Shown here piece by piece: positions 2,113 through 62,652 of a stretch of 64,000 nt of DNA. A program made the translations under genes and the position numbers. Location: positions 248,001 to 312,000 of the forward strand of contig NC_089433.1 of NCBI RefSeq assembly GCF_026210795.1. Direction: 5' to 3'. Each line of letters opens with the position of its first letter. The stretch's first letter is position 1. This DNA is from Rhizophagus irregularis (Eukaryota). The notes under the pieces were generated by a model. That model was not told where the DNA came from. It was given only the letters and a program-made list of their open reading frames with translations, and searched no databases.

Positions 2113-2235
2113 ATGTCAACAAAATGGCTTGTCAGCAAAATAGGGATTCGTTGAAATGGTTTCAGAAAAATGTGATGTCGGCGAAATGGCAAGTCGGCAA
2201 AATTACATCAAACAGTTGTCGGTAAAATGGGTGAA
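2113..2235. repeat. Degenerate ~15-bp GTCGGCRAAATGG-type minisatellite, probably a MITE remnant
   Basis: Units gtcaacaaaatgg / gtcggcgaaatgg / gtcggtaaaatgg. The reverse-complement pattern recurs at ~50290-50390 and weakly at ~62860-62920. Confidence 0.5.
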
Positions 2236-2239
2236 TATG

Positions 2240-5927: not shown

Positions 5928-7443
5928 ATGTTAACGCAGTTTTTTACTAGATTAAGTGAAAATTATATTGAAATTTTAAATGATGATGAATATTATGATA
6001 TAACAATTGAAGTTGGTAAGGATCCAAATGTAAAAATATTCCGTGCGCACATGATTATCCTGTGTTACCGCTCTCCATTTTTACGACGAACTTTAATTTC
6101 AAATAAAAAGAATAACGATAGTATTTTGACTCATATTAATTTATCAGATATTTCACCTGAAATCTTTCAAATTATTTTAGAGTAAGTCAAATTTATAACT
6201 TTTATTAATAATTTAATATTTTATATTTAATACAATTTTTTTATAACGTAGATATATTTACGGTGGTATAATTTCTTTTAATGAGCAAGAAACTTTAAAA
6301 ATTTTAAATGTATTGGTTGCTGCTGACCAACTTCAACTTCAAGAACTAGTTGATTATTTACAGAAATATTTAATTGAAAATAAAGTTGAATTAATGAAAC
6401 AAAATTTTGGACTTGTTTATCAAACAAGTTTTCAATCTGATTCTTTATTAGATCTTCAACAATTTTGTATAGATTGTATGACTAAACATCCTCAAAAAAT
6501 GTTCAAGTCACTTGATTTTACTTCACTTTCTGAAAAATCTTTGGTTTCACTTATTAAAAGGGATGATTTACAAATGAAAGAAGTTGAAATTTGGGATCAT
6601 GTTTTAAAATGGGGACTTACGCAAAATTCTTCTCTTATTTCAGATCCTGATACTTGGACGGATGATGATTATGAAATGATGAAAAATACTTTACAACTTT
6701 GTTTACCTTTAATTAGATTTTTTAGTTTATCATCTGAAGAATTTTTACAAAAAGTTCATCCATATAAAAAACTTTTGAAACCTCAACTTTATGATGAATT
6801 ATTTAAATCTTATTTGAACCCTAATATTGAACCAAGCAAAGATATACTACTTCCTAGATACAGGAATGTTGATGGAATTATTGATTCAAAAATTGTTAAT
6901 TTAAATATTGTTTCTCTAATTTCAAGGTGGATAGATAAATTGGATATTAAAAGTAAATTTGCTTATGTGAGAGAATTATACTTACCATATAAATTTAAAT
7001 TATTATTAAGAGGAAGTCAAGATGGTTTCACTCCTAAAAAATTTCATGAATTATGTGATAATTTACCTTGTACTGTTATATTTATCAAAGTAAAAGGAAC
7101 GGATGAAATTATTGGAGGATATAATCCTTTGATTTGGAAATGTTTGAATGATGAATATGGTGAAACAAAGGATAGTTTTATATTTTCTTTTAAAAGTAAG
7201 AATAATTTTAAAGATCCAATTTTGAGTCATGTAAATCATGAGAATATAAATAGAGCTATATTTTATCATACTCAATGTGGTCCTACATTTGGTCGTGATC
7301 TTTATATAGGCGTAAAAGGAGTTGATTCAGATGAATATCATCGTAATTATTGTGGAAAATATAGGTATGAAAAAGAGATAAGGAATACAGAAGATGTATT
7401 CTCAATAGAAGACTATGAAGTATTTCAAATTGTAAAAAGTTAA
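5928..7443 (+). CDS. BTB/POZ-BACK-TLDc domain protein (~481 aa, 2 exons)
   Basis: Exon1 5928-6181, intron 6182-6251, exon2 6252-7443. Motifs YYDITIEVG...FRAHMIILCYRSPFL and a TLDc C-terminus. Head-to-head with 3383-4845. Confidence 0.92.
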
Positions 7444-20417: not shown

Positions 20418-21898
20418 TTACTTTTTAATTACTTGAAATACTTCATAATCTTCTACTTCAAAATTTTTTGGAATTCCTATGCTTGGATAGACTTCTCCAT
20501 AACCACGATCTTCATTAGACCAATTAATATTATTAAGACAGTATATATTACCCATAGTTGGACCGAAATTATACTGACATAAAACAGCACGATCTTGTTT
20601 CTTAACATAACTTACTTTTGAAGTAGAAATATTTCCTCCATTGATAAAATTAAAAATAAAGCTATCTGCTGTAGCCACCCAACGAGGTTGTCTAGTATCC
20701 CAATTAAGTGGATTATACCCTCCTATTAATTGTGTTGAATTTTTAATTTTTGCTATCCAAATAGTAGCTCCTTTATCATCACAATTTTTATGAAAAGAAT
20801 TAGTATCAACTCCATCTTGACTTGAGCGATATAATAACTTAAAATCATAGGGATTATTTTTTCTATTATAATGTGAAGTATCTTTTTTATCAATCCACGA
20901 AGCAAAAAGAGGAAGATGATTCGATTTAATTAAAGTTGAATCGAGTGGATATTTTAAATTTGGCTTTCTTGAAGGTGGTAAATTAACTTTTGATTTTATG
21001 TCAGGAACTATATGATATTCCAAAAGATCATGAATTAAATCTTGTGGTAAGATGTCTTTGTAACAATAAACTTTGTAAAAGAAATCAGTAGGTTCAATAT
21101 CATAGAATCGAATTAATGGAATAAATCTGTATAATTCTCTTTCAATTCTTGTAATATCATCTTTATTCCATTTTGTTGGATCATTCTGCATATTTTGTTG
21201 GGCAAAACACCATTTTAATAAATACTCCCAAATTTCAATTTCATCCATAATTAGGTCATCCCTTTTTAATAATAATTCCAATAAAGGAGCTTTTAAATTA
21301 ATAAAATTTTCAGAACTGAATAAAATTTTAGGTTCTTCACAAATTTTTTCAAGGCAAAAATTCCATAAATCCGTAAATGTTTCATGTTGATAAATAATTT
21401 CAAGAATTCCGGTTGGATTTTGTTGTAAAAATTCGGTTTGATGTTCAATCAAAAATTCTTGAACATGAGAAATTAACGGATTGATATTTAGTTCATCCAC
21501 AGCTATCAATAATTTTAATACTTCAGAGCCTTGTAAATTCTTCAATTCAATATTTCCACAATAAATGAACCTAACAATATGATTAATAGTTAAATATTTT
21601 TTACAAATTTATATGATAAAATTTATTAAACAATAATATCTTACCTAAGAATGATATTAAATAATTGAAGTGAAATATTTGATTTTCTAAAAATAAATTT
21701 TCCATCTCTTTTCTCAGCCCATTCGTTAGAAAATGCAGTACGAAAATATTGAGACCTAGCACATAAAATATTTGAATGAGCATGAATTTCTTTAACATTT
21801 TGATCATCTCCAGCATAAATAATAACGTCATATCCTATTTCTGTTTCAAAAAGTTTTTCATAATCGTTGGATAATTCTGCCCAAAATTTTGAAATCAT
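20418..21898 (-). CDS. BTB/POZ-BACK-TLDc domain protein (~468 aa, 2 exons)
   Basis: Exon1 21898-21645, intron 21644-21571, exon2 21570-20418. Intact frame and family motifs. Confidence 0.92.
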
Positions 21899-22324
21899 TT
21901 TTTTTGTTGTAAATGAAAAAAAGGAAAAAAAAAAATGGCAAAAATTTGAGTTGCAACCGAAACCTTATTTATATTGTTTTACGTTGATCGTGTTTCCATA
22001 AATTTCTATAATTGGAAGCAATGATATTTTCTTCACGGCCAATTAAGATTTAAATGATCCAGATTATCTAATTCTACCCCAAACCTCAAGAAACTAACCA
22101 AAGTCATTGTGAGTACTGCCAATTAATTAAGTCAAAACTACACATGTACGGTGTACATTTGGGTCAAAAGCGAATAAATTTTTATTTGCTGATCGTCATA
22201 TTAAAAATTAGACGTATTAACGGTTTCCTTGACCTTCTAACTCTAGATGCTTGAAATTTTCTCTAAATAAAATATGTGTATATCGGTATTAACGTCGACA
22301 TAATTTTTTTAAGCCACAATAATT

Positions 22325-23060
22325 AAATTTATTTTAAATTTATATTAAAAACAAATATTATTACTAACACTTACCTAAAATTAAATAGGATAATATACTG
22401 GATAATTATAAAAGAATTCAGTTAACAAAAAATATTATATAAAATATATAACAATAGGAAATAATGATGCTATATATGATATTAATCATTTTTTTTAAAT
22501 AAAAAATTTAGAATTATATTAATACTACATAAATATGCAATAATAAAATTTAATAAATAATTTTTAACTATTAAAAATAAAATATCACCAAATAATTTTT
22601 AAAAGTTAGATAGTTTAAAAATATATTAATATTATATAACATATATGCATGTAATATTAAAGTTTAAATTATATGTAGAAATTATATTGAGTATGTAACT
22701 ATTTAATTACTAATTAAATAGCTTATAACCCACTCGGCTAAAAAAGATTACAAAATATTTTATTATTTTTTAAATAAAGTTATGTAAATATTGTATAAAT
22801 ATGTAATAATAAAATTTTTATTAAATAAATAACTTGCAAATATTTAATAATAGAATTAAATGAATAACTTACTTCCTATATTATTAAATAATTTTTTAAT
22901 AAAGAATTTAGCTAGTTTAATTGTATGTAAATATTATGTAAATATGTAATAATAGAATTAAACAACCCATACTATAAAAATAATTTTCTTAAATAATTTA
23001 GTTAGTTTAAATTATATATAAATATTATACTGTATAAATATGAATAATAGAATTAAATAG
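22325..23060 (-). pseudogene. Decayed relic of a microexon/intron array related to 39.0-39.9 kb
   Basis: Minus strand shows TAG-GAA-GTAAGT (exon 22875-22873), TAG-CCGA-GTGGGT (22737-22734) and TTTTAG-GTAAGTG (~22369-22380). Intron text resembles 39000-39880. No kinase exons follow. Confidence 0.6.
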
Positions 23061-24664
23061 ATAAAGTGAAAAAGAACGTGAGAGTTTATATTTAAAAAGA
23101 TTCATTGAACATAATACAAGATTTCCCACATCTCATAATTAATTGCATGAATTTTTTGGATTATAGTAATTAGAAAATTTAGTATGTTTAAAGTTTGTTA
23201 AATATAATTTACACTCTTGGTCATTCAAATACATAAAATTGATTAAAATGTTTAAAATTTATAGAAATATAGAAATCATAATTATGAACGAGCACCAACA
23301 TTATATAGTATTTAGGACTTACCTTTCTTATAACAAATATCAACAATAACTTTCCAAATATGAAACGTCATTAATGGTAATAAACTAAGGAACCCAATAA
23401 TTTTCTTTATTTCACATTCACCAAAAATATTTAGACATTCGCTATAATAAAATTTATTATAGTGATTTCTCTACCCTTAAATTGTAAGTGAATATTACAT
23501 AAGTTATTTACAAATGATTTTATTTAACAAATTATCTCGTTTAATATATTTACTTTCATATTCCTTGGAGCTACTTGAAACTCATTACAAATTTTTTAGA
23601 ATAATTTTAATCTATTAAATATTCATACTATATACTTTTTTACCTTTACATTACTGTGAGCTATTATTAAATAATAAGTATCGCATTTCTTTATTAATCA
23701 TCTTATTATAAAACATAGATTACATTAATTTAGAAATACTTAGAGGTAAACAATTATAAAAATTGAATAACCCTATAACTAACAAGTCTATTCTAAAAAA
23801 CGAATACTATGCTAAATAAATAATCTACTTACTAAACGCAACCTGTAATAAATACAATAAAATATATAAAAATTATTTGTAAAAGTTAACAAAGTTTTGC
23901 CTACTTATAAAAATTTTACTAACGTTTTATGTATATACTCTATGCATAATATTGATATTATTCTGAATCCGATACTATATCACCCCTTGTAATCGCTTTC
24001 TTCTTTTTACGTTTTTTCTTATTACTATCTTTCGTCTCATCTGAATCATCCGAACTTAAATTATCATCTTTTGGTTTTATTGAAATTAGTGGCCTTAAAG
24101 GTAGTCTTTTACTAAAATCTTCATTTAAATTTGTAAATTCTTTAACCACCTCCTTATTACTTCCAATATGTGATGCCGGTTTACTCGACGATGTAGGCAC
24201 TGGCGTTGATGTTGATTCAATTTCTAATTGGTCCATCGCATCGAAATATAACTCTTTATTCACTTGAAAGTCGTCCGACTGTTGTGTAGATGAATTATTT
24301 CTTGATGCAAAATGCACTTTTTTTGAACTTATATTTTTTGTTCTTGCCAAATAATTCTTATTGACTTTCCCATTTAAAAACTGATTTGCAATTAAGTATG
24401 ATTTACATACATAGTACTATGCTAAAATTTACCCTTCGTACTACATAAACTTTCTATTGAACGTCATACAGAAGATCATTATTCATTGCGCCACTTTGTT
24501 GAATAAATCAAGTTAAACAAAAAAGGTATAACTATACTTTAAAAGTTAATTCATTGACGCTATCGTTACGACGTTACGTAAACAAACTTTACGTTAATTA
24601 TAAAATAAAAAAAAATTTTTTTTTATTTATTTTTTTTTTGTTCGACTTAAATGACTATATAATC

Positions 24665-25345
24665 ATGACTATACAACCTGAAAATTTACTTGTTTGTTCT
24701 ACAGCGGGAAAAATATATGCTATCAGTAAGATAGATGGCTCTCAAATATGGAAGACCGAACTTAGTGGAGTACATGACGGTGTTGGTTCATTATTTGTAT
24801 CCGGTGATAAAGTTTATGTTGGAATGAATGGTTGTTTAATCGCTTTAAACTTGATTAAAGGAACGGAAATTTGGAGAAACTCACTGTCAGGGATGGGATA
24901 TAATGAAATATCATTACTTGTTGTTAACATAAACTCTGAAGGAGAAGTAACATCTCATGAAGCTCAATCTTCTATCGTTATAGTTGCTTCTCACGGAAAA
25001 GTATATGGAATAAATTCAGAATCAGGAGATATACTTTGGAAAAATAAATTGAAAAATGGTGGTTATGAATTGCCTTCTTTAATAATAGATTCACCTGATA
25101 AAGTTCTTGTTGGATGTGGAAAGTTGGTTTATAAAATTAATATTTATGATGGAAAAACTATCTGGCAAAAGAAAGTTTCTACTTGTTTACTTGGTTGTTC
25201 TCATGTTACTATGGCCACTCATCAAAGTAGTTTACAAAATGCATTTACATACACTGGATTTTGTAATAATCCTATCGCTCAACATTCTAGAAAGGAAAAA
25301 GAAAATAATAAATACGAAATTGCTTACGGTACAAATATTATATAA
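24665..25345 (+). CDS. Intronless PQQ-like (BamB-type) beta-propeller repeat protein, 226 aa
   Basis: First ATG at 24665. Four repeats ending in G..IW[KRQ]: GKIYAISKIDGSQIWK, GCLIALNLIKGTEIWR, GKVYGINSESGDILWK, LVYKINIYDGKTIWQ. Confidence 0.85.
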   Translation: MTIQPENLLVCSTAGKIYAISKIDGSQIWKTELSGVHDGVGSLFVSGDKVYVGMNGCLIALNLIKGTEIWRNSLSGMGYNEISLLVVNINSEGEVTSHEAQSSIVIVASHGKVYGINSESGDILWKNKLKNGGYELPSLIIDSPDKVLVGCGKLVYKINIYDGKTIWQKKVSTCLLGCSHVTMATHQSSLQNAFTYTGFCNNPIAQHSRKEKENNKYEIAYGTNII

Positions 25346-26400
25346 TGTATTGTTAATTAGTGGGGATTATTTTATAAACGTAAATTGTGTTAGTAGAAAA
25401 TATTTGATGTATATTAAATGAGAATTTCAAATTTTATATTTTATGTAAAATATCAAATTATATTTATTATATTGATTTAAAGTTCCCTTTAGTATTATTT
25501 TTTATTAAAAAAAAATAAAGGATAATTTTTTTTTAAAAAAAAAATTCAATATTTTATATATTGCGAATAATACGCTGATGCAATTATTACCATATTTGAG
25601 AGATTGACTTTTCGCCAGTATATGAACGGGATCTTGTAAAATTTTAAATATATTACTATGAAGTATTCTTACGTCATCATGTTGATTTGTTATACAATCT
25701 CGTATGAAAAAGTTATGCTGTAAAGGAAAATCCGAAAATGTTTAAAATCAGATTATTAAATTTTTTTTTTTTTACAAAATTCTTTCCTACCTGCCTGATT
25801 GCTGGTTTTTTTTAACATTAATAAAGTTAAATTGTTTACAACATAAGTTTGTGTGGTAATAAAGGAAACAAATTCAAACTTAATAAAATAATTTAACTAG
25901 GAAACGTAAGTCCAGTAAAATGCGATTTCATTAGGTGGCGATCACGTGGTGGACAGAGAATTCACGTGATCGATTTTTTTTTCATAGTGCGTAGACATAT
26001 ATTGTCCTTCGCTTCGCTCCAGACAATTATTGTAGCTTAAAAAAATTATGTTGATGTTAATACGATATATACATATTTTATTTGGAAAGAAAATGACAAA
26101 CATCTAGGACTAGAAGGTCGAAGAAACCGTTAATACGAATTTAATCGACAAATAAAAATTTATTCTCTCTTGACCCAAGCGTACACCGTACATGCGTAAT
26201 TTTGACTTAATTTTTTGACAGTACTTCCATGACTTTGGTTAGTTTCTTTGAGGTTTGGTAGACGTAAAGAAAATATCATTGCTTCCAATTATAGAAATTT
26301 ATGGAAATACGATCAACGTAAAACAATATAAATAAGGTTTGACTGCAACTCAAAAATTTTTGCCGTTTTTTTTTCCTTTTTCTCATTTACAACAAAAAAA

Positions 26401-27871
26401 ATGATTTCAAAATTTTGGGCAGAATTATCCAACGATTATGAGAAATTTTTTGAAACAGAAATAGGATATGACGTTATTATTTATGCAGGAGATGATCAAA
26501 ATGTCAAAGAAATTCATGCTCATTCAAATATTTTATGTGCTAGGTCTCAATATTTTCGTACTGAATTTTCTAACGAATTGGCTGAGAAAAGAGACGGAAA
26601 ATTTATTTTTAGAAAACAAAATATTTCTCCGCAATTATTTAATATCATTCTTAGGTAAGATATTATTGTATTTTATCATATAAATTTGTAAAAATATTTA
26701 AATAATTAATCATGTTATTAGGTTCATTTATTGTGGAAATATTGAATTGAAGAATTTACAAGGCTCTGAAGTATTAAAATTATTGATAGCTGTGGATGAA
26801 CTGAATATCAATTCGTTAATTTCTCATATCCAAGAATTTTTGATTGAACATCAAACCGAATTTTTACAACAAAATCCAACCGGAATTCTTGAAATTATTT
26901 ATCAACATGAAGCATTTACGGATTTATGGAATTTTTGCCTTGAAAAAATTTGTGAAGAACCTAAAATTTTATTCAGTTCTGAAAATTTTATTAATTTAAA
27001 AGCTCCTTTATTGGAATTATTATTAAAAAAGGATGACTTAATTATGGATGAAATTGAAATTTGGGAGTATTTATTAAAATGGTGTTTTGCTCAACAAAAT
27101 ATGCAGAATGATCCAACAAAATGGAATAAAGATGATATTATAAGAGTTGAAAGAGAATTATATAGATTTATTCCTTTAATTCGATTCTATGATATTGAAC
27201 CTACTGATTTTTTTTACAAAGTTTATTGTTACAAAGACATCTTACCACAAGATTTAATTCATGATCTTTTGGAATATCATATAGTTCCTGACATAAAATC
27301 AAAAGTTAATTTACCACCTTCAAGAAAGCCAAATTTAAAATATCCACTTGATTCAACTTTAATTAAATCGAACCATCTTCCTCTTTTTGCTTCGTGGATT
27401 GATAAAAAAGATACTTCACATTATAATAGAAAAAATAATCCCTATGATTTCAAGTTATTATATCGCTCAAGTCAAGATGGATTTGATACTAAATCATTTC
27501 ACAAAAATTGTGACAATAAAGGAGCTACTATTTGGATAGCAAAAATTAAAAATTTAAAACAATTAATTGGAGGGTATAATCCACTTAATTGGAATGAAAG
27601 TCGTTCTTGGTATGCTACAGCAGACAGTTTTATTTTTAATTTTATCAATGGAGGAAATATTTCTACTTCAAAAGTAAGTTATGTTAAGAAACAAGATCAT
27701 GCTGTTTTATGTCAGTCTAATTACGGTCCATCTATGGGTAATATATACTGTCATAATAATAATTGGTCTAATGAAGATCATGGCTATGGCGATAATATCT
27801 ATCCAAACATAGGAATTCCAAAAAATTTTGAAGTAGAAGATTATGAAGTATTTCAAGTAATTAAAAAGTAA
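26401..27871 (+). CDS. BTB/POZ-BACK-TLDc domain protein (~467 aa, 2 exons), inverted duplicate of 20418-21898
   Basis: Exon1 26401-26654, intron 26655-26721, exon2 26722-27871; intact frame. Confidence 0.92.
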
Positions 27872-29922: not shown

Positions 29923-32900
29923 CTACTGCTGCTGTGATAATTTACTACGCAAATCACGTATTTCTTCTAATATATTTTTTAAAGTAGTTTCATCAACAGG
30001 ATTATGTTGAATATTGAGTCGGTTTAATAAATCCTGCTTTAATTCCAAAAATTCACCTGTATTCCATTCTCCTTCATTAATCATTTCTTTGATTTTTCGC
30101 CGAACTTTATCAACATCAGCATAATAGTATCTTAAAAATAAATTTATATAAAAAATTAATAAAAAATTAATTTTGCATAAAAACATAATAAAATAATCAA
30201 ATTTACATACATTACTTCAGGAAACCATTCATGCCAACGCCTTTGATGTGGTAATAAATAAAGTAATTCTATTTCAGCTAGAATCTTTGAAAAAGTCAAA
30301 AAATTTTAGTAATTTACAATGATTTAACTAAATAATGATGATAATATACAGTACCTCTGCTTTCTGTACTAAATATGAGGCTTTATTATTATCTTTTTCA
30401 ATTGCATTATTAAGTAATCCAATAAGCAAATTCATAAGATATACAACAACCAATAATGAAAATAGAACAATTAGTATTACAAGTGATGGGTTGTCTTTAT
30501 ATGTCCAATTTGATAATGCACTTGAATCTCCTATAATAAAATATATATTTTATTAAATTACTAATTAACAAATATAATAATTAGAAAGAATTCCTATTTA
30601 CCTATTAAGAATAAATACATTGCAAAAATAGCAGTCCCAAAATCTACAAACATGTTTGTATTTCCATCGGGTGGTTGAATGAAATATTGATTTTGATTAA
30701 CAGTTCCATCAGCAAATAATTGATAATAAGCGGGGGCTATATTCCAAGGGTTATTTGGATCATCATTATTTGTATTTTTTTTTTCAAAAGAAAAATTAGA
30801 TGTGGGTGATAATAAAATGTAAAATGTATGCGCAAAACTAATTATAATAATAAATAAAACTACTAAAAAAGAAGCAATTTGTTTTCCAACACTAATCATA
30901 ATTGCAAAATATACACCAAAAGATTCAAATACTCTAAAAAATAACAAAAACTTTATATCTAAAAATAAGCATGAAAAAGAAATTAAGTGAATATTTCTAT
31001 TATTTGTTTGAATCCAATAAATAGAAGTACCAATTGGAAAAAAGAATGCAATTATATCTATAATATTAGATAATAATTAATAATTTTTATAATAATAATG
31101 TTAGGTACTAATTACAATACATTCATATTACCAAATATATTCCAAAAATTACGGAACCATCTAATAGGATTATAAATAAACTGACGTATTTCAAAACTAA
31201 GATGAATAAATCCAAGTATAATAGAGGCAATTAAAAGTTGGTTTTGAGTATCTTCATCAATATATTGTTGAGGAATTGTTGCAGCAGCAGTAAAGCATCC
31301 AAGAAAAGCCATATATACAATCCAAATTAATGCATAGTAGTATTTTCCATAGTTATTCCATTTAAAATCAATTAATGTCTCTCCATTCCAAGTCTTATAT
31401 ATATCTTTATTTATTGTTTCGACAAATGGACTATACTGAGGTTTAATTAACTCTTTAAACCAATTATATTTTTGTGGATAGTTAACAAATTTAATATATG
31501 GATTCATAAATATAATTGTTGGTGTTGTTGTATGTTTAAAAAGTTCTGAAGAAATGTGATAAAAAATGTCATTAAGATGTCATTAACATTCAATAACAAA
31601 AAATAAATAGAAAACATATTACCTTCTTTAGCTTTAACAAAAAAATGGTATATATAAAATATAGGTAAAAGGGGCAAAATTATTAAGATTTGAATAGAAA
31701 TTAGCATCAAGTACATAATTATATGTTTATCACCAATTTCACTCATTAATAGGTTATATTTACACCACCGAATAGATTTAGTTAAATTAATTATTTGAGG
31801 ATATTCAGAAGAGGAATAGAGATGTAAATTGATATTCTTATATTCTATACTGTAAAAAGAAGAATCTGTGATCATTGTTGTTTCTGATGAATATCTTGAA
31901 ATATAATCTGGATAGCTTTTATTCAATAATGCCATTGTAGAAGTAATAATACTTAAATACATCCTATTATTTCCTAAATCTTCTATAAAATAATTAATAC
32001 ACTTTTTATAAATATCTTCTATTAAATCTAATTTATGTTCTTCAATTGCAAATGTTAATAATTCAACACCATACTTCAAAAGTCTCTCCTTATTATCTTT
32101 TATATATGTTTCCCATTTATCATAATGTTTTAAACTATCATAATTTGATAAAGGTAAAGTAGGTTTTGAAAATATTTCTTTATAATTTTTCAATTGTTCT
32201 ATAATATTATCTTTGTTTTCGATTTTTAAATAATAATATTTGTCTGTAGAAATGAATTCTTTGTTGATCTTCATATAATAATAATAGTTTAAAGAAATAG
32301 ATTTGTTATTTTCATTAAAATTATAAATAAAAAGACCTATTGTTGTCAATATAATGATATCACTGTCATTAAATAACTTAAATCCAAGTACATATTGACC
32401 TGCATTAATATTTTCTTCTCTTGTACAAATTGGATCCTGACTATTAACTGTATTATTTCCAAAAACTTCTAGTCTAATTATTCCCTTATCTAATTTAAGC
32501 TTCCATTCAATTAAATTTTGAGTCAATGTCACTTCGTTATACTTAATATGATCTATTTCTTGGAATAAAGCATGTATAGTATCCATATATCTATTATTGA
32601 AGATAATATTTAAGAGATCAACTGTTTTATATGTTTCTTTCTTGTTCTTAAAATCATCATCAACATACCAGTTTTCAATAATTTCATTAGGAATTTCGAA
32701 TTTTGAACTGTTTTTTGCTAAAATTTCTTCATGTTTGATCTTTATAATATGTCCATCTCGAATTCCAAATACATATTTGGTCGTAGTTCGAATTTTATTT
32801 AGTAAACTTCTGGCCTGACATTTTTTCGATAATTGTCCTTTCTCTTTTAACCGGTCTAAACATTTATCCCAATAAAGTTCTTTAATGATACTGCCACTCA

Positions 32901-33937
32901 ATAAAGGAATCAATGAAGGGATTAAACAAGTACGATTCATAAAATTATGTAGTTGAATAACTAATTGAAATTAATTTAATATGAATAATGGTATTGCATA
33001 AATTTTTATAATTTTTAACTCTAAATACTGTACTTACCATCATTAATATTATTAATATCCAAAGAAACAAAAGGAATTTTAAAGTCAATCGAATAAACAA
33101 TAATTTTATTATTTATTCTTATATAAATAAAGTTCTCATCATTTCCAATGATGATATTCTGTAAAAGACAAATGATAAATTAATTGTACGATCCTATTTG
33201 AAAATATTTTGTAATTAACTATCATATTTTATTACCTTGTCGTATGAAATATAATTTTTCAACTCGTAACTTATAAGTTCTATCTTGTCTTTTTTAAATA
33301 TTCTTATACTTTTTCGAGTAATAAGATTATATTCATAAATAGAATTATTTGAAAATAAATAAAGCTTATCATATTTTGATATGCTAATAAAGTCAAAACC
33401 CTCCGGTATTTTGTAAATTCTTTTACAATTTAATTTGTTATTTTTAGTTTGCGTGGAATAAATAAAAATAAAATTATCTTTTACTTCACGTAAAATAAAT
33501 TCACCTTTTAAGGTAAAGGTATAATAATTATAATTATAGTTAACGCCACAATCCAAAATAATTTTCTGTTTACTATTCATGTCGCATATTTCTAATAAAA
33601 TAAAATTAAACCGTAATTAAATATATGCAAATATTAATCGTTTGAATTGATAAAATAATTATGATTTACCCAAATATTCATTATAGTCGATATACGCAAG
33701 TTTCTTATCATTGGAAACAAATATTTGGTATAAAATTTTATCGGAATCTAATTTGATAAACAATTCCGGTTTAAATGGACACTCATTAATATTCCAACCG
33801 GCAATTGAATGATCATAATTACTATATGTAACGAGGTATTCTTCATTTGGCGATATTTCTATTTTAGTAATAGGTTCACTGTTATGTGGCTTATCAATAT
33901 CGTTACCAATATCAATTTCTACCGCAATGTTACTCAT
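29923..33937 (-). pseudogene. Multi-exon TRP-like ion-transport protein with beta-rich N-terminus; one frameshift
   Basis: Exons from ATG 33937 (33937-33670, 33591-33236, 33158-33038, ...). Membrane region LFFRVFESFGVYFAIM...SFAHTFYILL...NLLIGLLSNAI. The frame changes near 31510-31640: the expected TTPTIIFMNPY lies in another frame, so this is a pseudogene or an assembly indel. Confidence 0.8.
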
Positions 33938-34600
33938 TTTTTTTTAAAAAAATAAAATAGCAAACTTTATTATAAAAGAAAGTAGTGTTTTACAAACTGG
34001 CTATCATTAGTTACGGCAAAATATGAAATACGTATGTACAGTATAAATACCTATTATAATGGAAAAATAATTAGCCGCAACGTGATCCGGACCCGGCTCA
34101 GGCGTAAATCGTCGTGGAATTCCAGGAGATTTTCTGCGATTAAACCGGGTCCGGATGATCGGCAATCAGGAATTCGGCTCTAATTACACCATTATAAAAA
34201 AATAATAAGAGAAATGATCATCGATTTATAAGCATAATCTGACATCATAAGTCCAAGCGTTGGCGTTAAAAAAAAAAGTTAGCCTTATATGACAAGGTTT
34301 AATGTAGTGATGTAAATTTAAGGAATTTATTATCTTAATTTGTTTACATTGAATAAAATAATTGGTTCTCTCTTTGTTAACCAAATATGAAATATGCATA
34401 ATTCAATAGTTCATGTATTTTTTAAAAAATATTATTTTTAATGTGTTCGCGCCTGATCTACGCTTAATAGTTAAGACCACTTGATCGGCAAATTCATTCT
34501 AATTACTAACGTATGGGAGAATTAATTTTGATCACCCTTTCACTAATACTTATAAATGATAGGTAATTAACTTTATAGGAATAACAATAGATCAGTATAA

Positions 34601-38244: not shown

Positions 38245-41136
38245 ATGGCTCATAGTAATGATAAAGGTAAAAATATATATCAAGAATATTTAATGCAACT
38301 TAGAATTCAATCCTAAACAAATTTGCAATATAATGAAAATAGTTTCAAGTAGTACCAAGGAATCTGGAGGTAAATATAATATGTTAAACAAATTGATAGT
38401 TTCTTAATTTTATTTTACAGTGATATTCACATATTATTTAATCTAACTATATTCTTGTTTACTTAAAAATTATTTTAATAATTTAGCTTGTAAGTCAATA
38501 GGTTATCTTATAATTTAAATATTTATTGAATTACTTGATAAATTATTTATTTTTTCTTAATGTCTATATAACTAAATAATTCATTTAATGATTAATAAAT
38601 GCTATAGTTAGTAAGTTATTGTTTATATATTTTTTAATGTAAAATTACATTGTAGTATCCAAATAATTAAATTTTATTAACAACTATTTAATAATCTAGG
38701 GAGTAAGTTATAAATCATTTAGCCAAAACTATTATAGTTATTAAAATTAACATATAATTCAAAATTATTATATTATTTATTTAAATAATTAGAGTGTAAG
38801 TGATATGATATATTTAAACAGTTTAAATTGTTCATATTTCAGATTTATACATCTAATAATTAATAATAATATTTACAGGGTGTAAGTTACTATATATCAT
38901 ATCATATATGTTCTGTTATTTATATATAATATAAATTAACCAAATACTTAAAAATATTTGGTAGATTGTAAGTTATTAGTCATTTATTTAATTCTACTAT
39001 TATTTATAACATTTACATCATATAATTTAAACTAACTAAACTTTTTATTTAAAATAATTTATTAATAATATAGGGGGTGGGTTATTTAATTTAATTATTC
39101 TAAATTTATGTAATATTTACATATAATTTATACTACTAATTAAATTCTTTATTTAATAATATAGTTTGTAAGTGATTTATTTAATTTATTTATATAATGT
39201 TTACTTATGTTTAAACTAAACTTTTATTTAATAATGATGATAATCATATAGTTCGTAAGTGATTTATTTAACTTTATTATTATATACTTATATGATATTT
39301 GCATGCATTTTATATATTTTATACTAAATTAAATTCTTTATTTAAAAATTATTTAATACAGGAAGTAAGTTATTATTTAATTCAATTACTACATACTTAG
39401 ATATTATAATACAAACTAATCAAATTCTTTATTTAAATTTATTTAATAATATAGAGGGTACGTTGTTTATTTAATTTTATTATTTTTGTTTTGTGCAATA
39501 TTTATGATAATTTAGCTAAGATTTTTTTATTTAAAAATTACCTAATAATTTATTTAAGCTCGTGAGTTATAAATATTTCAATTATTTATTTAGATACTTA
39601 GTTTAATTTTAATTAACTGAATTCTTTATTTAAATAAATATTTGGTAATTTAGTTATTTTTATTAATGGTGACAAAAGTAGTGGATTATTTAAACCCGCA
39701 GTAAAATCATTAGATGATCGTGATGATGGCAGTAAGTTATAAATAATGATTATTATATATTATAATATAAAAACTAAGTTTTACATTCAATTATATTTCT
39801 ATTTAAATTTAGAGTAAGTGTGAATATTATTTTTTGTTTTTAATTTTAATATAACTTTTTAAAATACAACTTAATTATTTAATTATAAGATTTGAAGGAA
39901 GTAGAAATGCAGATACATTTATTCTTGAAAGCAATTTAAAATGGATTCCTTATGATAAATTTAAAAATGTTGAACGTATTGGTGATGGAGGATTTGGAAT
40001 TATATACAAAGCTATTTGGTCATTAAAAAGCGGAGATAAAGAAGTGATTCTTAAAAGTTCAAAATCAAATTTGGACAAATCTTTAATAAATGAAGTATGA
40101 TAATACAATATTTATTTTTTAAATTTAATTATAATTTATTTCTAACTAATATATTTAATTTGTATTTTTTAGTTGATATATCTTGCAAATTGTTTGGAAT
40201 CAACGGAAATTATTAATTTATACGGATACACAAAAAATCCAGATACTTTGAATTATATGGCAGTAATGAAATATGCAAATAAAGGTAAATTAAGAAGGAA
40301 TTTAGCAAAAGTAATTGAAATGAATTGGAAACAAAGATTATGTATATTATATAAAATTATTTCTGGGCTTCATGAAATCCATAATCAAAATCTTATTCAT
40401 TGTGTTTTAAGTGATGCTAATATTTTAGTTCATAAAGGTGAAGAGGATAAAGAGAATACTTTTTTTATTGGTGGGTTTGGATTATGTCAACCAGTATCTT
40501 TTAAAAAAGGGGATATTTTTGGTGTTATGCCATTTGTGGCACCTGAATTATTTAAAGGTAAACCTTATTCTCAAGCTAGTGATATATATAGTTTTTCTAT
40601 GATTATGTGGGAATTTACATCTGGAGTACCACCATTTGATAGAGAATTTGAACTTGATTTTATTTTAAGTATTTGTGGAGGTAAACTTCCTGAAATTATT
40701 GAAAATACTCCACAATGTTATGTAGATTTAATGAAAAGATGTTGGAATACTGATCCATTAAAAAGGCCATCTGCATCAGAAGTTAGGGGTATTATTGGAA
40801 GCTGGATTTTCCATTATTCTGATAATACTAATGATGAGTTAATAAGCAATGATATTATGGAATTTATAAATGCACCAGTTGGATATGCAACTGAATCTCT
40901 TCCACAATTTCTTAGTAAAAAAGAATTGGAAGAAATTCTTGAAAATAAATATTTAGAACCAAGTGTAAGTATAGATCTGAATGAAATGCTAGATTTGGAT
41001 GATTTGGATGATTATACAATTAAAGATACGAAGTCACTAGGTAGGTAGTATAGTGTTCAAAAAAAGCAAATTATTTATGTGAAATTAATTTTATTCTTTT
41101 ATAAATCATTTAATTATTAAAACAGATGAGGATTAA
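38245..41136 (+). CDS. TKL-like pseudokinase (~415 aa) with twelve 3-nt microexons and one 1-nt exon
   Basis: Model: 38245-38266, 38343-38369, 3-nt exons at 38487, 38608, 38700, 38793, 38879, 38965, 39074, 39165, 39252, 39362, 39455 and 39559, then 39654-39731, 39813, 39890-40094, 40173-41040, 41126-41136. Total 1248 nt with no internal stop. Kinase fold WIPY...IGDGGFG...VILK...APE...SDIYSF. The first exon and start codon are less certain (alternative in-frame ATG 38333). Confidence 0.8.
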
Positions 41137-42860: not shown

Positions 42861-44566
42861 ACTCATCGGGAAATTTTTTTAGGAGATATATCGCCGATCA
42901 ACGGATTCTTCGATTAGAATCGATATGGTTAAATTAACAATAATTATCAATATTGTTAAATAACGATAATTAACTTTATACAGTTCTTATAATTTAAATA
43001 GAGTATTTTTTATGGTTAAATAACGTCAAATTATTTTATTATTTACAGATTGCTTTATTCATTAATAATAAATAATTACACTATTAATAAATAATTACAC
43101 TATTAATAAAATATACTGTATGATTCGATATATACTAAAATTTACACTAAAGTCTACTATACTAAAAATCTAAAATCTATACTAATCTAATTACGTTCAA
43201 AACTGATTGTATCCATTATCCCTAACTCAGTATCTAAAAACTACAAAAAGAGATGAAAATTAACACATTTTTGTAAATTATGAAACTTACCGAATCCATA
43301 TCACAAGTCTGAAACTTTGAAAATTTAAAATAAGTTTCGAAAACTTCAAAACTACCAGTATCTAACGCAGCTGGAAGCAAAAGCCTTATATTATTTTATG
43401 AAGATCGCATTACTGTAACTTTCTATTATTTACTGCGGATTTGCGTTTACATATGTTGTAGTATGTATATTTTGTGGATAAAATAATATTGATGGTTTTA
43501 TGATTTAGATAAAATCTTTTATAATTTACTGCATTTGACAATAATTTAGTAAGTAATGCGCTTCATTAAGTAATGGTATTAACTTTTGCTAACAATTGTA
43601 TTAAGACGTTAGGATTGTAGATATTTATCACGTTTTTACGAATTTTTTTTTTCATTGTACCACTATTATCTATCATAATGCCAAGTAAAATGACTCTTTT
43701 ACAAAAAGTTACTTTTGTTTTTTACTTATTTGAAATATTTATAGTCTGTCGCCAAGTTTTGCTAGGAAACCTATTTTAGGAAACCTTTTACGTTGATTTA
43801 AGATTTTATAAAAGTATTAATTATAATCTTTGATCATATACATTATTAAACTTTTAAAAAATAATGTTCGAGCCCGTGATACGGTTGCGTGATTTGGAAT
43901 AAATGATCTGCAACAATAGTTATTTCATCGCTTTAATTTTTGAATTTTTGGTTAATGGAACAAAAGTTTGGAGAAGCTATCTGTCGTGAATGATGTACAT
44001 ACAATGGACGTCATTATTCGCTACTAACTCAATTCTGAAGGAGAAAGCGGGGACTAAAATCTCTATTGTTGCCTTTACGGAAAAATATAGAGTAGAATCA
44101 GGAGATATATCGAATCACATTTTTTAAATGTTGGATATGAAATTCTCTCCAGTATTGTGATTTATAGTTTATATGATAATATTGAAAAAACAACTGTACA
44201 AAATTATTATTTATAATTCTGGAAAAGAAATTCCTGGATAAGTACAATAAGTACTTGAGGTGAATTAATGTAAAAAAGAGAGAATATTATACACTTTAGC
44301 AATAGATAACAAAAATTTAAACAAATTTACCTGTACATACTGCGGCACTATGATCGTACCACAATTGTTAGTTGTTTCCTTGTATAGGTTTGTAACGATT
44401 GTAACGTGATACTAAACAACAATAATGAAAATTGTGCAACTTGTGCGATGTTGATCCTTGAATAAATTATATAATGAGACTTTTGTAGAGCGCACAACTT
44501 TTTCGAAAAAAAAAAAATATTTATATATATGAACAAATAAAAAAAAATTTTGTTCTGGTGATAAAT

Positions 44567-46629
44567 ATGGCCTCATTAAATGAATGGATTGACCTGAAAA
44601 TAAAGGATGGTGACATAAATTATTTTGAGTATGATGAATTTACTAATATAGAAAAAGTTGGTGAAGGAGCATTTGGAATTGTGAATAGAGCTGATTGGAA
44701 AAGTGGTGAGATCAAGGTAGCATTAAAAGTTCTTACAAGACATTCTACAGTTGGTGAAAATAATATGAAAAAGTTTCTTAAAGAGGTAACGGAAGTTTTT
44801 AAATTTAACTATTATATGGGATAAGTACTAATTTAATGATCTTGCTTTAGTTAAATAATTTAAGAAAAGTTTGTTTTCATCCAAACATAAATCAATTTTT
44901 TGGAATTACAAAAGGTCAGTATTTCATTAATTTATAAAATAATAACATTTTTAATTAATTATCTTTATTTTCTTAGAACCGATATCAAATAATTATATGA
45001 TGGTATTACAATATGCTAATCAGGGGAATTTAAGAGAGTATTTAAAGAATAAATTTAATTCATTAGAGTGGAATGATAAAATTCAATTATCTTTAGATAT
45101 TACACGTGGGTTAAAATGCTTACATTCAAGAAAAATAATTCATAGAGATCTGGTAAATTTATATTAATTCTGTTTAAATTCAATTTTTGATTAAATATTA
45201 ATACATTTTAATAATTTACGTATATAGCATGCAAAAAACATATTAGTTCACAAAGATAAACCAATGATTGCGGACCTTGGATTATCTAAACAGTTGAGTG
45301 CTGATACTACATCAAGTTCAACAGTTTATGGAATGCCAGCATATATTGATCCACAATGCTATAAAAATGAAAATTATATAAGAGATAAAAAATCAGATAT
45401 TTACAGTTTAGGAGTTCTTTTATGGGAAATAACAAGTGGATGTCCACCTTTTTCAAAAAGCCCAGTTCACATTGTAAACATTAAGGTTGCTAGTGGTATT
45501 AGGGAACAACCGATAATTAATACTCCTTTAGCCTATGTGAATCTTTATAAAAAATGTTGGGATGATAACCCAGATTTAAGACCAACTGTTGATGAAGTCT
45601 TTGATATATTGGAAAGGATTTCTCTACAGGATTTACAGGATAACACTATTACTAATAATGAAATTAATCCTAATATTATAAAAGATTTAAATAAATTAAT
45701 TTTAAATTCTAATAATTCGGATTTGACTAATCAAGATGATTCACAATCATCACAATTAATAGTATCAACTAATATCGATTTATCACAACAAATAAGTAAG
45801 TAAAAATTATAACTATTATCACAATTTTATTTTAGAAACTTATTTGACGTTTATATTATTAGGTACACCATTATCATCCGTTTTACCTAGCATTAATGAA
45901 GATGAAATTGGATTAAATAATACTTTAAACGAAATTATAATTGCTTATATAAATTATAATAACAAGGGAGAGACAAGAAATTTTAATTTTGATAAGGTAT
46001 TAAGAAAATATGAGTCAAAATCAAAAGAAATTTTTAATTATCTTTTGAGTAATCCGAATATACAGCATCATAAAGTGATGGTTGGTAAATTTTACAATGA
46101 AGGATTTGGATGTAGTAAAGATGATTATAACAAAGCTCTTGAATGGTACATTGAAGCAAGTCAGCAAAATGACATAAATGGTCATTATGAAGTCGGTCAT
46201 TTCTATTTCAGTGAGGGTAATTATGTAAAAACATTTGAATATATTAATCTTGCTATTAATAATGGATTAAATATAGCTTTACGTTTTCTCGCATATTGTT
46301 ATAAATTTGGTTATGCGGGATTGGAAACTGATTATATTAAAGCATTTGAATTATATAAAACATTATCTGAGAAAGGATTTATACCTTCTCAATACGAATT
46401 AGCTAAATGTTATAATAATAGTATTGGTACTCAAGAAGATAAAAATGAGGCTTTAAAATGGTATAAATTATATCAAAAAAATGATGGAGAATGTGATGTA
46501 ACGTCCACAATCGTGGATATTGAAAATGAACTGGTAAATATAATTTTACATTTTTCTTTTATTTTGAGATTTATAATAGAAAAAAATCTATATTAACTTA
46601 ATTTAATTTTATAGGAACAAAATAAATAA
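44567..46629 (+). CDS. TKL-type protein kinase with C-terminal Sel1-like repeats (6 exons)
   Basis: ATG 44567. Motifs VGEGAFG, VALK, IIHRDL/HAKNIL, IADLG, YIDPQ, SDIYSLG spread across GT-AG introns. C-terminal KALEWY, KAFELY and EALKWY repeats. Confidence 0.9.
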
Positions 46630-54550: not shown

Positions 54551-55895
54551 TTGAATGCACCTGCACCCACTCACGTGACATGATTTTAAAATTTTATTGG
54601 TGATAATCAATCTATTTTTTATTTTTTACTTTGTTTAGGAACGTTTTTTAATTACTCTTTTTTTGTAGGAATACCCTGAAGATGAAATGGACCCCTAAAA
54701 ATAAAAGGTGTGTTTTTTTCAATTTTTTTTCCCATTCATTTCGTTCAAGAACAACGTCCCTAACATTCTTTCGTAATTTTTTTTTTATAGGAACACTCCC
54801 TGGAGACTCTTAAAGACAAAAGGTAAAATTCTTTTTCATTTATATTTGTTAATTTCGTTTAAGAACATTCCTAACATTCTTCAATAATTTTTTTTATAGG
54901 AACACCTCCTGGTGACTCTTGGAGATGAAAGGTAAGTTTTCTTTTTTTGTTTCTTTTATTAATTTCATTTAAGAACATTTCCTAACATTCTTTGAATAAT
55001 TTTTTTTATAGGAACGCCCCTGGTGACTCTTGGAGGCGAAAAGTAAGTTTCTTTTTGTTTCTTTTGTTAATTTCATTCAACTAAGGATGTTCCTAACATT
55101 CTTTCAATAATTTTTTTTGTAGGAACGTCCCCTAGATAAAAGATAAGTTTTCTTTTTTCGTCTCTTTTGTTAATTCCATTTAAGAATGTTTCTAATGTTC
55201 TTTCAATAATTTTTTTTATAGGAACGCCCCTGGTGACTCTTGGAGACGAAAAGTAAGTTTCTTTTGTTTCTTTTGTTAATTTCATTCAAGGACGTTCCTA
55301 ACGTTCTTTCAATAATTTTTTTTGTAGGAACATCCCCTAGATGAAAGATAAGTTTTATTTTTTCGTCTCTTTTGTTAATTCCGTTTAAGAATGTTTCCAA
55401 TATTCTTTCAATATTTTTTTTTTATAGAAATGTCTCCTGGAAACTCTTGGAGACGAAAAGTAAATTTCTTTTCATTTCTTTTGTTAATTTCATTCAAGAA
55501 TGTTCTATTAATGTTCTTTTAATAATTTTTTTATAGGAATGCCTCCCAGAGACTCTTGGAGACAAAAGATTTTTTGTATTCTTTTGCTAATTTTGTTTAA
55601 GAATGTTTCCTAACATTCTTTTGATGGTTTTATAGGAACACCACCTGGAGATGAAATGGACTCCTGGAAACAATTAATAAATTTTAACAACAGAAAAAGG
55701 TAATAGAAAACAATAAGACTTATATAGTTATATCAGTTTATTAACTGTTTCAAAAAAAACTTTAAAAAAGCCTTTTCATTTAAAAAAATTAAATAATGAA
55801 TAAGATTATTTGATGAATAAATAAACGATAACACTGATCAGCCAATCAAATTTAAAATATTATAAATCACGTGATAGGGTGCAGTGTGCGTTCAA
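54551..55895. mobile_element. TIR-bounded element filled with a ~110-118-bp tandem repeat (about 8 units, ~54730-55670)
   Basis: TTGAATGCACCTGCACCC..TCACGTGA at 54551 is inverted to TCACGTGATAGGGTGCAGTGTGCGTTCAA at ~55868-55895. Internal units read ttcctaacattctttcaataa...ataggaacgcccctggtgactcttggaga. No TSD resolved. Confidence 0.65.
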
Positions 55896-58670: not shown

Positions 58671-61167
58671 GTATTTTTAAAAAGAAGTTTGAAGTTTGAG
58701 AGAGCTTTTGAGGTATATTTATATCTTTTGAGATTTATCAGCGTAGTACTATAAAAAAAAGTAAAAAAAAACCAGTATCAGTAAAGGTTTATGCAAAAAA
58801 AAAATAATAACCAGTATTGTGATTGCAATCTACCTCTTTATGGCAAGCTTTGGATGAGTCATTATGAAGAAAAAGATGGATGGATAGATAAATTAATTAT
58901 TGAGTTTCAATTAAACTATTAAACTATTATATGTATACTGAGATAAACATGCATGATCTTGATATTGATCATCTTTATTGATATTTTCGACAACCGGATC
59001 AATGGCGCAAGCCACACATCGGACTTTATTAATTCTCAATTGCGACTAAACAATCAGAAATATATATATAGGGGTCAGGTGATGAAAAAAAATTTTTTAA
59101 TTTAAAAATAACAAAAAAGAATGTTTATTTAATTAAAAACGTCGAAATTAATGTTTTAGTAAACGTCGAATTTGACTTTTTTTTTAATTCAAAAATAACA
59201 AAGTAGTATACAATAAAATAAAATGTATCGTTATAGTATTTACAAGAATTCCTTAATTCCAAATAAGATGTTATAAATAATTCTAATTGTTTATTAAAAG
59301 TTTTTGTATATTAAATATTTAAAAATGAAAAATATACTGTATAATATAAATATGATGACAAAATATTTGACAACAATCCAATATTAAAGAAAATTAATGT
59401 CTAAAATTAACCGTTCATTGCTAAATAATTTATTAAAAAATAAACTGCTATCAAATTTAAGTTCACATTGGCAAAAAAAACTTTAGATAGATTATTTCAA
59501 GTAAAATTTACGCGTTTAATAAAAATAAAAGACGAATTCACTACACACCAAAATTCTTAGTCGAATATACCTGAAACTACCAATATGACTAACAGGTAGT
59601 TTCTTTTCACTCATATTTTCATAATAAATTATTTATAACTTCATTAGTTCATCTGGAATAAATTTCTCGTATATACAGTACACTCATTGTGCGAGAATAG
59701 TATATTCGTACAAATTAAAGAATTTGATTGAAAATTATTTCTGAATTTTCATACCTAACCTAATAAATTACAAATTGAATAAACCTTTGTCAAAACTTGC
59801 AGCTGCCGATGATTATACTTATAATTATTTCCGGTTTAACGTGACGTGTCCTTTTACCTTTTATATGTTATTTAGTATCTTTAGTATCTGAAGAAATATC
59901 AATAATAATTATGCAATTATAGTTTATTTATAGCTTAATAAAAAAATATCAGCATGATGAAAAAGCACGATCCTATTTGGTCTTTCAAAAATATTAGTAG
60001 TATAGTACTTAATAACAAGAAAAAATTAATTAGTAATAAAATAATCAACATATTGATAAGCAAGCTTATTAAATAATAATCAAGAGATTATTTTTAGTTT
60101 ATTTTGCAACGCATCTATATAATTCTCTTAACGTTAATTCTCTAATTTCTAATTCCGATTCCAATTATAATATTAATAATTCCCTAAACTTGTTGCAAAA
60201 GTATTTCGTATTTCAATTTCAAGTACACATCTCCAAATTATTGGATTAATTCATTTATTTGCGATTTTTCGAGTCACGTCTGATATCTGACGCGCGTCAC
60301 CTTATCGCACAATAAAGTTTCTATAGTAAACACTTATTTTATTAATGAAATTACTTCTTTAATATTCTATAAGTAAACTTACTGTATATATCACAATGAA
60401 TTACACATATTATAAAATTTTATACTTATTTGTAAAATTATATATTGTAAATCTACTTGAAATACTTGTAATTTCTAAATAATTTTAATGAAGTGTTTTT
60501 CATGAGTTTGAGTCTAATCAATCTAATATTTAGGTAATTAATTTATTACAATAAGCACAAAGGCTCATGAAATGGGTTGGAATTGACATTAAAAAAAGAT
60601 TATTTGATGCCCGAATCTGGTCATAAGACTTTTGATGTTGAACAAATTTCTGAAGAACGGACTGAGTCGAACCGGAAGCTTCTAAAAAGGATACCCGTGT
60701 GTTAATTGTTTGGTTATAACTTAATGTTATGTGACAAATGACGCGCGTCAGGACGTCAGGTTGTTCAGGGGATCACATTTTTTATTGTAAAACCTTTTGT
60801 GATTGGCCGTTATTCTAATACACCAATTGTTATAAATATATAAATTTGGCCGGAATTATGTTTAATTCTGGCCAAAATTGAAATTTCAATCGCATTTTTT
60901 TTCATGTGTATTCTTAAGACAATTATAAATTATGTCCTTGAATTATTATAATACTTTGTATAATAAAATTTAAAAATCCGCAGGATATTCGTAATTTGTC
61001 ACATGACTTTAAAAAAAATGAATGACAAATCTACAGTAACTGTTTCTAGAAATTCATGGTACACAAACTACACAATCGACATGAAATTATTTAAATAAAG
61101 CTACGGGTTTCATTCCTTTCAAACTTAAAATTTTTTCCTTTTTTTTTATTTTTATATTAAAAATAAC

Positions 61168-62652
61168 ATGTCTTCAAAATTTTTGGCAGAATTATCTAGC
61201 GACTACGAAAAACTTTTTGAAACTGAAATTGGATATGATGTTATTATTCATGCTGGAGAAGGACAAAATTCGAAGGAAATTCATGCTCATTCAAATATTT
61301 TGTGTATTAGGTCTCAATATTTCCGTTCTGCATTTTCTAATGAATGGGCTGAGAAAAGAGATGGAAAATTTATTTTTAAAAAACCAAATATTTCACCTCA
61401 ATTATTTAATATTATTCTTAGGTATGATAATAATTTTAATAATTTATGATAAATTTTTTTTATTCTCATGATTCAAATCTTTCTAATTGTTATATTTATT
61501 AGGTTCATTTATTGTGGAAATATTGAATTAAAGAATTTACAAGGTCCTGATGTATTGGAGTTGTTGATAGCTGTGGATGAGCTAAATATCAATTCGTTAG
61601 TTTCCCACATTCAAGAATTTTTGATTGAACATAAAACTGAATTTTTACAACAAAATCCAACTGGAATTCTTGAAACAATTTATCAACATGAAACATTTAC
61701 GGATTTATGGAATTTTTGTCTTGAAAAAATTTGTGAAGAACCTAAAATTTTATTCAGCTCTGATAAATTTATTAATTTAAAAGCTCCTTTATTAGAATTA
61801 TTACTAAAAAGAGATGACTTATATATGGATGAAATTGAAATTTGGGAGAATTTATTAAAATGGTGTTTTGCTCAACAAAATATTAAGGTTGATTCAACAA
61901 AATGGAGTAAAGAAGATATTATTAGAGTTGAAAGAGAATTATACAGATTTATTCCTTTAATTCGATTTTATGATATTGAACCTGCAGATTTCTTTTACAA
62001 AGTTTATTGCTACAAAGACGTCTTACCGCAAGATTTAATTCATGATCTTTTGGAATACCACATTGTTCCTAACATAAAACCTAAAACTAATTTACCACCT
62101 TCAAGAAAACCAAATTTAAAGTATCATCTTGATTCAACCTTGATTGAATCAAAACATATTCCTATTTTTGCTTCATGGGTTGAGAGAAAAAATTCTTCAC
62201 ATTATAATATGAAAAATATTCCATATGATTTGAAATTATTATATCGTTCAGATCGGGATGGAACTGACACTAAAACTTTTCATATAAATTGTGACAATAA
62301 AGGAGCTACTATTTGGGTAGCAAAAATTAAAGATTCTACACAAATAATTGGAGGGTATAATCCACTTGATTGGGATGAAGTTTCATATTGGAAAACTACA
62401 GGAGATAGCTTTATTTTTAATTTTACTGATGGAAAAAATATATCTACTTCAAAAGTAAGCTATGTTAATAATCGGGAGTATGCTGTTTTTTGTCATGATA
62501 CTTATGGACCAACCATGGGCAATTTGCACTGCAACCTGAATGGTTGGTCTAATGTTAATCGGGGTGATGGAGATCGTTATCCTAATATAGGAATTCCAGA
62601 AAATAATTTCAAAGTAGAATATTATGAAGTATTTCAAGTAATTAATAAATAA
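61168..62652 (+). CDS. BTB/POZ-BACK-TLDc domain protein (~467 aa, 2 exons)
   Basis: Exon1 61168-61421, intron 61422-61502, exon2 61503-62652; intact frame and family motifs. Confidence 0.92.

Follow-up and report, generated by a model that had tools for sequence, protein, structure and literature searches.

Twelve consecutive 3-nt exons are spliced in order in front of a predicted pseudokinase domain of Rhizophagus irregularis

An AT-rich stretch of 64,000 nt of Rhizophagus irregularis DNA, in the following called the window, contains from 38487 to 39561 the pattern AG-NNN-GT twelve times in a row. This raises the questions whether the triplets are indeed exons of only three nucleotides, and whether an array of such exons serves to diversify a short peptide. 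A re-reading of the sequence agreed with the preliminary description in the positions of the units, in the triplets (in order CTT, TTA, GGA, AGT, GGT, ATT, GGG, TTT, TTC, GAA, AGG and CTC), in the donors (GTAAGT in nine of the twelve cases, otherwise GTGGGT, GTACGT and GTGAGT) and in the length of the eleven inner introns, which is 83–118 nt. Of 17 matches to HAG-NNN-GTRVGT in the whole window, 12 lie within the 1.1 kb of the array; 100 shuffles yielded 2.4 matches on average and at most 7. This excess and the RNA reads described below ruled out a chance pattern or a plain satellite. At 38420-38432 an acceptor-like CAG is followed by text that resembles the start of the later introns; it was unused in the RNA seen and is possibly the trace of a lost unit.

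The gene structure was determined using five RNA runs (X2, X5, X22, X23 and X24). X2 and X5 were taken as RNA because GT..AG joints were present, and X22, X23 and X24 are raw poly(A) reads from two samples of one study, with about a quarter of each run covered. All exons are on the + strand. The first coding exon (38245..38266) carries the ATG, encodes MAHSNDK and ends in phase 1; its GT..AG joint to 38343 was found in all five runs, it is supported by the N-terminus of the gene model P0121, and the transcript extends upstream of it to at least 38160. RNA joints define the 27-nt exon 2 (38343..38369, phase 1-1), the 78-nt exon behind the array (39654..39731, phase 1-1) and the exon for the kinase N-lobe (39890..40094). 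The main kinase exon with the PF07714 domain (40173..41040) has its 5′ joint in RNA, and the last coding exon (41126..41136), which ends with DED-stop, was placed by comparison of the C-termini of the public models P0001 and P0121 with the sequence. In addition, the frame requires an exon of a single nucleotide, an A at 39813, which was seen in X5 as a joint 39731>39890 with one A and in X2 as a joint 39813>39890, and which is absent from both public gene models. This 1-nt exon and the ATG exon had been omitted from the preliminary description, and both are present in RNA.

Every junction of the whole chain is GT..AG, and the coding chain of 1249 nt is open. It was verified that phase 1 is the only open phase of the 78-nt exon, and full inclusion of the twelve units reads AFRKWYWVFRKAL in this phase. 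The array thereby encodes 12 of about 415 residues; these 12 residues are missing from P0001 and P0121, the two public models of the gene, in which the array has been left out. A phase-0 reading, LLGSGIGFFERL, disagrees with the flanking exons and the reads and was rejected for this gene. It is tempting because the paralog models P0019, P0024, P0029, P0072 and P0108 show similar G/L/I runs; judged from the predicted proteins, these models probably read their arrays out of phase. The N-termini of the paralogs P0065, P0067, P0093, P0100 and P0108 contain repeats of 9 residues in tandem that are similar to the 27-nt exon 2, and therefore larger phase 1-1 exons may be copied in this kinase family as well.

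Nine reads crossed from 38369 into the 78-nt exon; as mates are possible, they represent perhaps four to five molecules. Two of the nine, both from X24, contained the full 36-nt insert with all twelve units. Six others, two each from X22, X23 and X24, contained an insert of 27 nt, for which units 1–5 plus 9–12 are the sole possible reading, and the ninth came without its insert letters, so that rarer forms are possible. Units 1–5 (38487, 38608, 38700, 38793 and 38879, spanning 38487..38881) and units 9–12 (39252, 39362, 39455 and 39559, spanning 39252..39561) are thus present in both mature forms, and units 6–8 (38965, 39074 and 39165, spanning 38965..39167) are present in the full form and missing from the short form. 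The preliminary description had pointed to transcripts from 38343-38369 to 39654-39731 as the place to look, and a full insert and an ordered subset were found there, with no empty join of 38369 to the 78-nt exon among the listed joints of the X22, X23 and X24 reads. The letters between the joints bore out that the units are phase-1 exons: the twelve triplets are real 3-base exons that are spliced in order. In contrast to the expectation that skipping would recode the peptide, the observed loss of units 6–8 deletes YWV cleanly and recodes nothing, and the short form encodes AFRKWFRKAL. Three reads from X24 depart exon 2 at 38365 and appear to continue into a paralog's own spliced array.

Splicing intermediates were also found. 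In three further raw reads, units 1–3 were joined and intron 3 was retained. Record 1 of X2 (1262 nt, depth 14) runs from exon 1 via exon 2 into the joined units 1–5, retains intron 5, continues with the joined units 6–8, retains intron 8, continues with the joined units 9–11 and the retained later introns, and ends with spliced kinase exons. Nine of the 13 array introns had been removed and introns 5, 8, 11 and 12 were retained in this contig, which may merge molecules; its unit 10 was deduced from a one-letter mismatch and a joint. Partly spliced RNA thus contained blocks of three to five units whose joining was complete while neighbouring introns were still retained. Expression was low: on the 5′ exons the mean read depth stayed below 10.

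The two forms could also stem from two DNA alleles, with all units always included and the 27-nt form transcribed in another nucleus type or from a near-identical paralog that lacks units 6–8. Diverged versions of the gene occur in other isolates (P0002, P0122, P0123 and P0011), the short form was read from RNA alone, and no raw read fell on 38763-38974 in about a quarter of X22, X23 and X24. However, the listed reads showed no exon difference save one site that fits a paralog, and full and short forms were both present within one run. Furthermore, there is no likeness between introns 5 and 8 (z 0.6), which speaks against a deletion allele that arose by recombination, and the X2 precursor retained precisely the introns on either side of units 6–8. 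An origin from two alleles is therefore regarded as very unlikely, and alternative splicing of one gene as the likely source of both forms.

A metagenome collection was scanned for the pattern. Nine of its 64 parts were covered, and they yielded 110 loci, i.e., 52 GTAA/TAAG simple repeats, 29 uniform or other loci and 29 varied loci. A GC content of 24.5% or less was found in 21 of the 110, all of which contain microexon runs at the level of DNA, and in 20 of these 21 an intron-plus-3-base unit is repeated, with up to 18 units. Their introns are 70–125-nt repeats of the same general type as those of the window; compared with the introns of the window array they reached mean z values of 1.0–3.0, in contrast to 0.5 for the other introns of the gene. 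Kinase-family sequence lies behind the array in six loci, with strong tblastn matches in L002, L009 and L032, a weak one in L023, and recognition by translation in L056 and L094. None was found behind the array of L028, L096 passes abruptly into other sequence, and the remaining loci end at or just past the array. Eight loci have flanking exons that establish phase 1. The GC content and an identity of about 50% to Rhizophagus kinases suggest that the low-GC loci belong to Glomeromycotina. For the statistics, the 20 low-GC loci with a repeated unit and the window were used, and arrays of higher GC were handled apart. L050 was excluded because its introns are not copies. This contig (3930 nt, GC 21%) carries across its whole length about 30 or more microexon-like units, mostly of 3 nt, between unrelated introns, and to judge by its sequence it is a different, non-repeat kind of array.

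In this set, phase-1 stop codons were absent from all 164 adjacent unit pairs, while 6.3 were expected from order shuffles (P=0.0003; the pairs are not independent). The result was similar without the window (0/153, P=0.0014) and after pruning of related arrays to 12 loci (0/117, P=0.003); for the window array alone it was not significant (P=0.19). In pairs that would be formed by skipping, stops occurred in 16 of 254 cases (Fisher P=0.0004), namely in 7/139 after skipping one unit and in 9/115 after skipping two. Phase 2 contained 29 stops in 164 pairs, and phase 0 none in 189 units, so that the stop test alone does not fix the phase. Triplets starting with TA are lacking altogether; a possible reason is that AG-TA would look like a donor. 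Adjacent pairs are free of stops and skip pairs are not, and selection therefore preserves an open frame for the in-order product.

These results bear on the proposal that the array is a generator of diversity by splicing. The two forms in the reads are in line with it, but free skipping was not observed. If units were combined freely, one gene would yield a large peptide repertoire, as has been proposed for the nank genes of truffles. The window array could indeed encode 2782 distinct open peptides, its read depth is low, one crossing read is without a listed insert, and for the Tuber arrays extensive alternative splicing is described in the texts that cite them. Yet 1294 of the 4096 possible subsets contain a stop, stops have not been purged from the skip pairs, and one and the same short form made up six of the eight listed reads in three runs; if units were skipped independently, the probability of three identical short molecules would be 0.003 or less. 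Free combination thus appears quite unlikely, and splicing probably varies the peptide by a few block choices, not by 2^12 patterns.

A second source of variation was revealed by the comparison of units with their surroundings. For 56 unit pairs, which were picked on flank identity and are not independent, the identity was 0.93 for the flanks and 0.55 for the triplets. Within single loci the respective values for introns and triplets were 0.93 and 0.42 (L056) and 0.93 and 0.58 (L096); the intron baseline is inflated, because gapped alignment of AT-rich introns gives values of 0.67–0.74 even with shuffles. The stop pattern and the faster divergence of the triplets indicate that most diversity likely arises in the DNA, between gene copies.

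In the window copy itself, the tandem amplification that had been proposed is only partly visible from the sequence. The mean pairwise identity of the array introns is 0.75, compared to 0.72 in shuffles, and a clear likeness is limited to the introns behind units 6–10 (z>4 in eight of ten pairs). A decayed paralog of the 5′ part of the gene lies on the opposite strand (23660..22370, -). Its exon 1 homolog has ATA for ATG, it contains an exon 2 homolog and related introns, and remnants of units comprise 3 nt at 22875, 4 nt at 22737 and none at 22374; no kinase was seen behind it. At 54734-55621 a tandem unit of about 110 nt consists of an intron-like part and an exon-like part of 19–32 nt, which lies between TAG and a donor-like site and has lengths that break the frame. 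The window also contains, on both strands, a family of related genes with at least six members (197-7443, 20418-27871 and 61085-62652), which we take to be of the BTB-TLDc type, a Sel1 kinase gene at 44489-46596 and an ion-channel-like gene at 30594-33943.

The encoded protein matches the PF07714 profile with 127.7 bits (cut-off 23.1, E 7e-37), and the Pfam matches of P0121 are PF07714 and PF00069, thus kinase families only. The closest solved kinases include EGFR, TAK1, Roco4, CTR1 and MLKs. HRD reads HCV and DFG reads GGF, so that both catalytic Asp residues are lost, which are both kept in 112 of 114 scored homologs, and the domain is predicted to be an inactive pseudokinase. The array-bearing relatives L002, L009 and L032 retain the HRD-loop Asp by reading, and loss of catalytic function thus does not characterise the family as a whole. 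P0001, a Rhizophagus irregularis record, matches the main kinase exon with 100% identity, and 723 relatives were found at an E of 1e-40 or less. Records from other assemblies of R. irregularis and from R. diaphanus share the N-terminal exons and have a kinase identity of 65–70%; they may be either alleles or paralogs. When the N-terminal region was used as a query, the matches were limited to P0002, P0003 and P0128, none of which contains the array residues.

The N-terminus with the array is of low complexity and polar by reading, a secretion signal is not evident by eye, and the predicted fold of the array-less model P0121 has a mean pLDDT of 37, which is too low for use. Both peptides of the window are amphipathic, with hydrophobic moments of 0.73 and 0.69 (values without a background comparison), and the observed skipping of units 6–8 ranks 9 of 67 open block skips by hydrophobic moment. 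For the window peptides this character is a weak hint to a function. The peptides of the relatives' arrays range from acidic to hydrophobic to helix-like, and a general amphipathic membrane role is therefore excluded.

It has to be considered that the array may have grown neutrally, i.e., that a unit that keeps the frame spread by slippage or unequal crossing-over in a tolerant linker, that selection only removes stops, and that the skipping of units 6–8 is noise. The low-complexity N-terminus, the peptides of relatives that share nothing, the decayed copy in the same window and a kinase that is degenerate and weakly expressed would all fit. However, triplets that outpace the adjoining introns in divergence are not expected from drift alone, all twelve units have working splice sites in spite of old introns, and the chain of 1249 nt has remained open, so that neutral growth is considered unlikely. 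The reading that we favour, and hold to be somewhat probable, is that the in-order 3-base exons encode a segment for specificity or membrane targeting that evolves fast and precedes a kinase predicted to be inactive, with forms of 12 and 9 residues that likely result from alternative splicing.

The following mechanism would be in accord with the favoured reading. Each intron of 83–118 nt would be recognised singly, and adjoining introns would be taken out in succession. Removal would be slow for the introns that follow unit 5 and unit 8, and donor 5 would often be joined to the acceptor of unit 9. The array would have arisen by head-to-tail copying of an intron-plus-3-base unit that always keeps the frame. 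The introns would supply the sequence likeness for unequal crossing-over, by which units could be gained, lost or swapped, while the triplets would be free to differ and selection would favour altered triplets. Most variety would thus exist between gene copies and alleles, and splicing would add a few block variants. Both forms of the window copy are predicted to be basic-aromatic amphipathic stretches, which would suit binding to a membrane or a partner, and the pseudokinase would act as a scaffold or decoy.

Short exons and tandem exon copies are known from animals. The micro-exon genes of Schistosoma encode secreted proteins with largely longer microexons that preserve the frame and vary by splicing. 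Dscam contains tandem exon copies, and one of many domain-sized exons is picked. The R. irregularis array shares short frame-preserving exons and probable splice variation with the former and tandem copies with the latter. In contrast to Schistosoma, its units are 3 nt long, contribute the 12 residues mentioned above and come without an evident secretion signal, and in contrast to Dscam the units are additive, with nine or twelve included together, and not mutually exclusive.

Much closer is a precedent from fungi, although a pure 3-nt array had been thought to be undescribed in this kingdom. According to passages in PMC4986451, PMC13449251 and PMC3689799, which cite Iotti et al. (2012) as the source, the nank genes of Tuber melanosporum contain multiple or tens of codon-sized exons, whose alternative splicing diversifies these genes, and thus alternatively spliced arrays of such exons in fungi were already known. 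As far as these passages go, both systems have in common runs of 3-nt exons, an expanded family, a mycorrhizal fungus, alternative splicing (probable in R. irregularis, and of small extent at this depth) and the reading as a diversification device; in R. irregularis twelve consecutive 3-nt exons reach the mRNA as a 36-nt insert, and the family of the host gene is expanded. The differences are that the host encodes a tyrosine-kinase-like pseudokinase and not an NLR (NACHT-ankyrin), that the species belongs to the Glomeromycotina and not to the ascomycetes, that the array lies near the N-terminus, and that two forms were seen at low depth in contrast to the splicing called 'extensive' in Tuber. 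In addition, if 'codon-sized' is taken to mean that one exon equals one codon, the arrays differ in phase, as the units straddle codons (phase 1) in the window and in the eight anchored loci. New are thus the Glomeromycotina as a mycorrhizal lineage, the kinase host, the codon-straddling phase and the isoforms at the level of reads. Among the metagenome loci of higher GC, L012 (1157-6911, GC 50%) contains a hydrolase-NACHT-ankyrin NLR-like gene followed by >30 units of an 83-nt intron and three varied bases; this array is open in two phases, its triplets are 0.32 alike compared to 0.87 for its introns, and from its sequence it looks like an array of the nank type. L039, L052, L109, L017, L005 and L093 contain intron-like repeats with 3-nt spacers, and in L017 ankyrin-like sequence follows the array by reading.

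In Coprinopsis cinerea, exons of 1–3 nt are spliced and missed by annotators, with 27 three-nt exons in 26 genes (10.1101/2024.05.10.593147). Annotation likewise missed such exons in P0001 and P0121, but about one per gene in Coprinopsis contrasts with twelve in a row from a repeated unit. A section of PMC6123716 names PF07714 the most frequent motif in the set of expanded R. irregularis genes, and that section does not mention a microexon-built N-terminus alongside this expansion. The window gene is a Pfam member with 723 relatives, and it differs from the expanded family in the loss of both catalytic Asp residues. No report on microexon arrays in arbuscular mycorrhizal fungi was found in a literature search with thin coverage of subscription papers and annotation supplements.

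It is tempting to speculate, and is put forward as a tentative possibility, that arbuscular mycorrhizal fungi possess a large variable family of kinase or pseudokinase receptors or decoys, in which a specificity segment written with three bases per exon serves self/non-self or partner recognition, in convergence with the NLR design of truffles. The repeated intron would then be a recombination handle, and the triplets would be driven apart by selection. The codon-straddling phase would allow any gained, lost or skipped unit to recode its neighbour, block skipping would add variants within one cell, and the family would be hidden from current gene models.

Taken together, the reads prove the accurate splicing of twelve 3-base exons in a row, and the intermediates show the order of assembly, which makes the array a ready test case for how the spliceosome handles adjacent introns that are three bases apart. 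The N-termini of a kinase family that is expanded in the main plant-symbiotic fungus are mis-annotated, and the missed part is the most variable one. The truffle design is extended to a distant lineage, another protein class and a different phase, and its recurrence across lineages suggests that a repeat of an intron plus three bases was invented more than once as a module for diversification. Provided that specificity resides in the segment, these genes would be candidates for self/non-self or partner recognition in mycorrhizal fungi.
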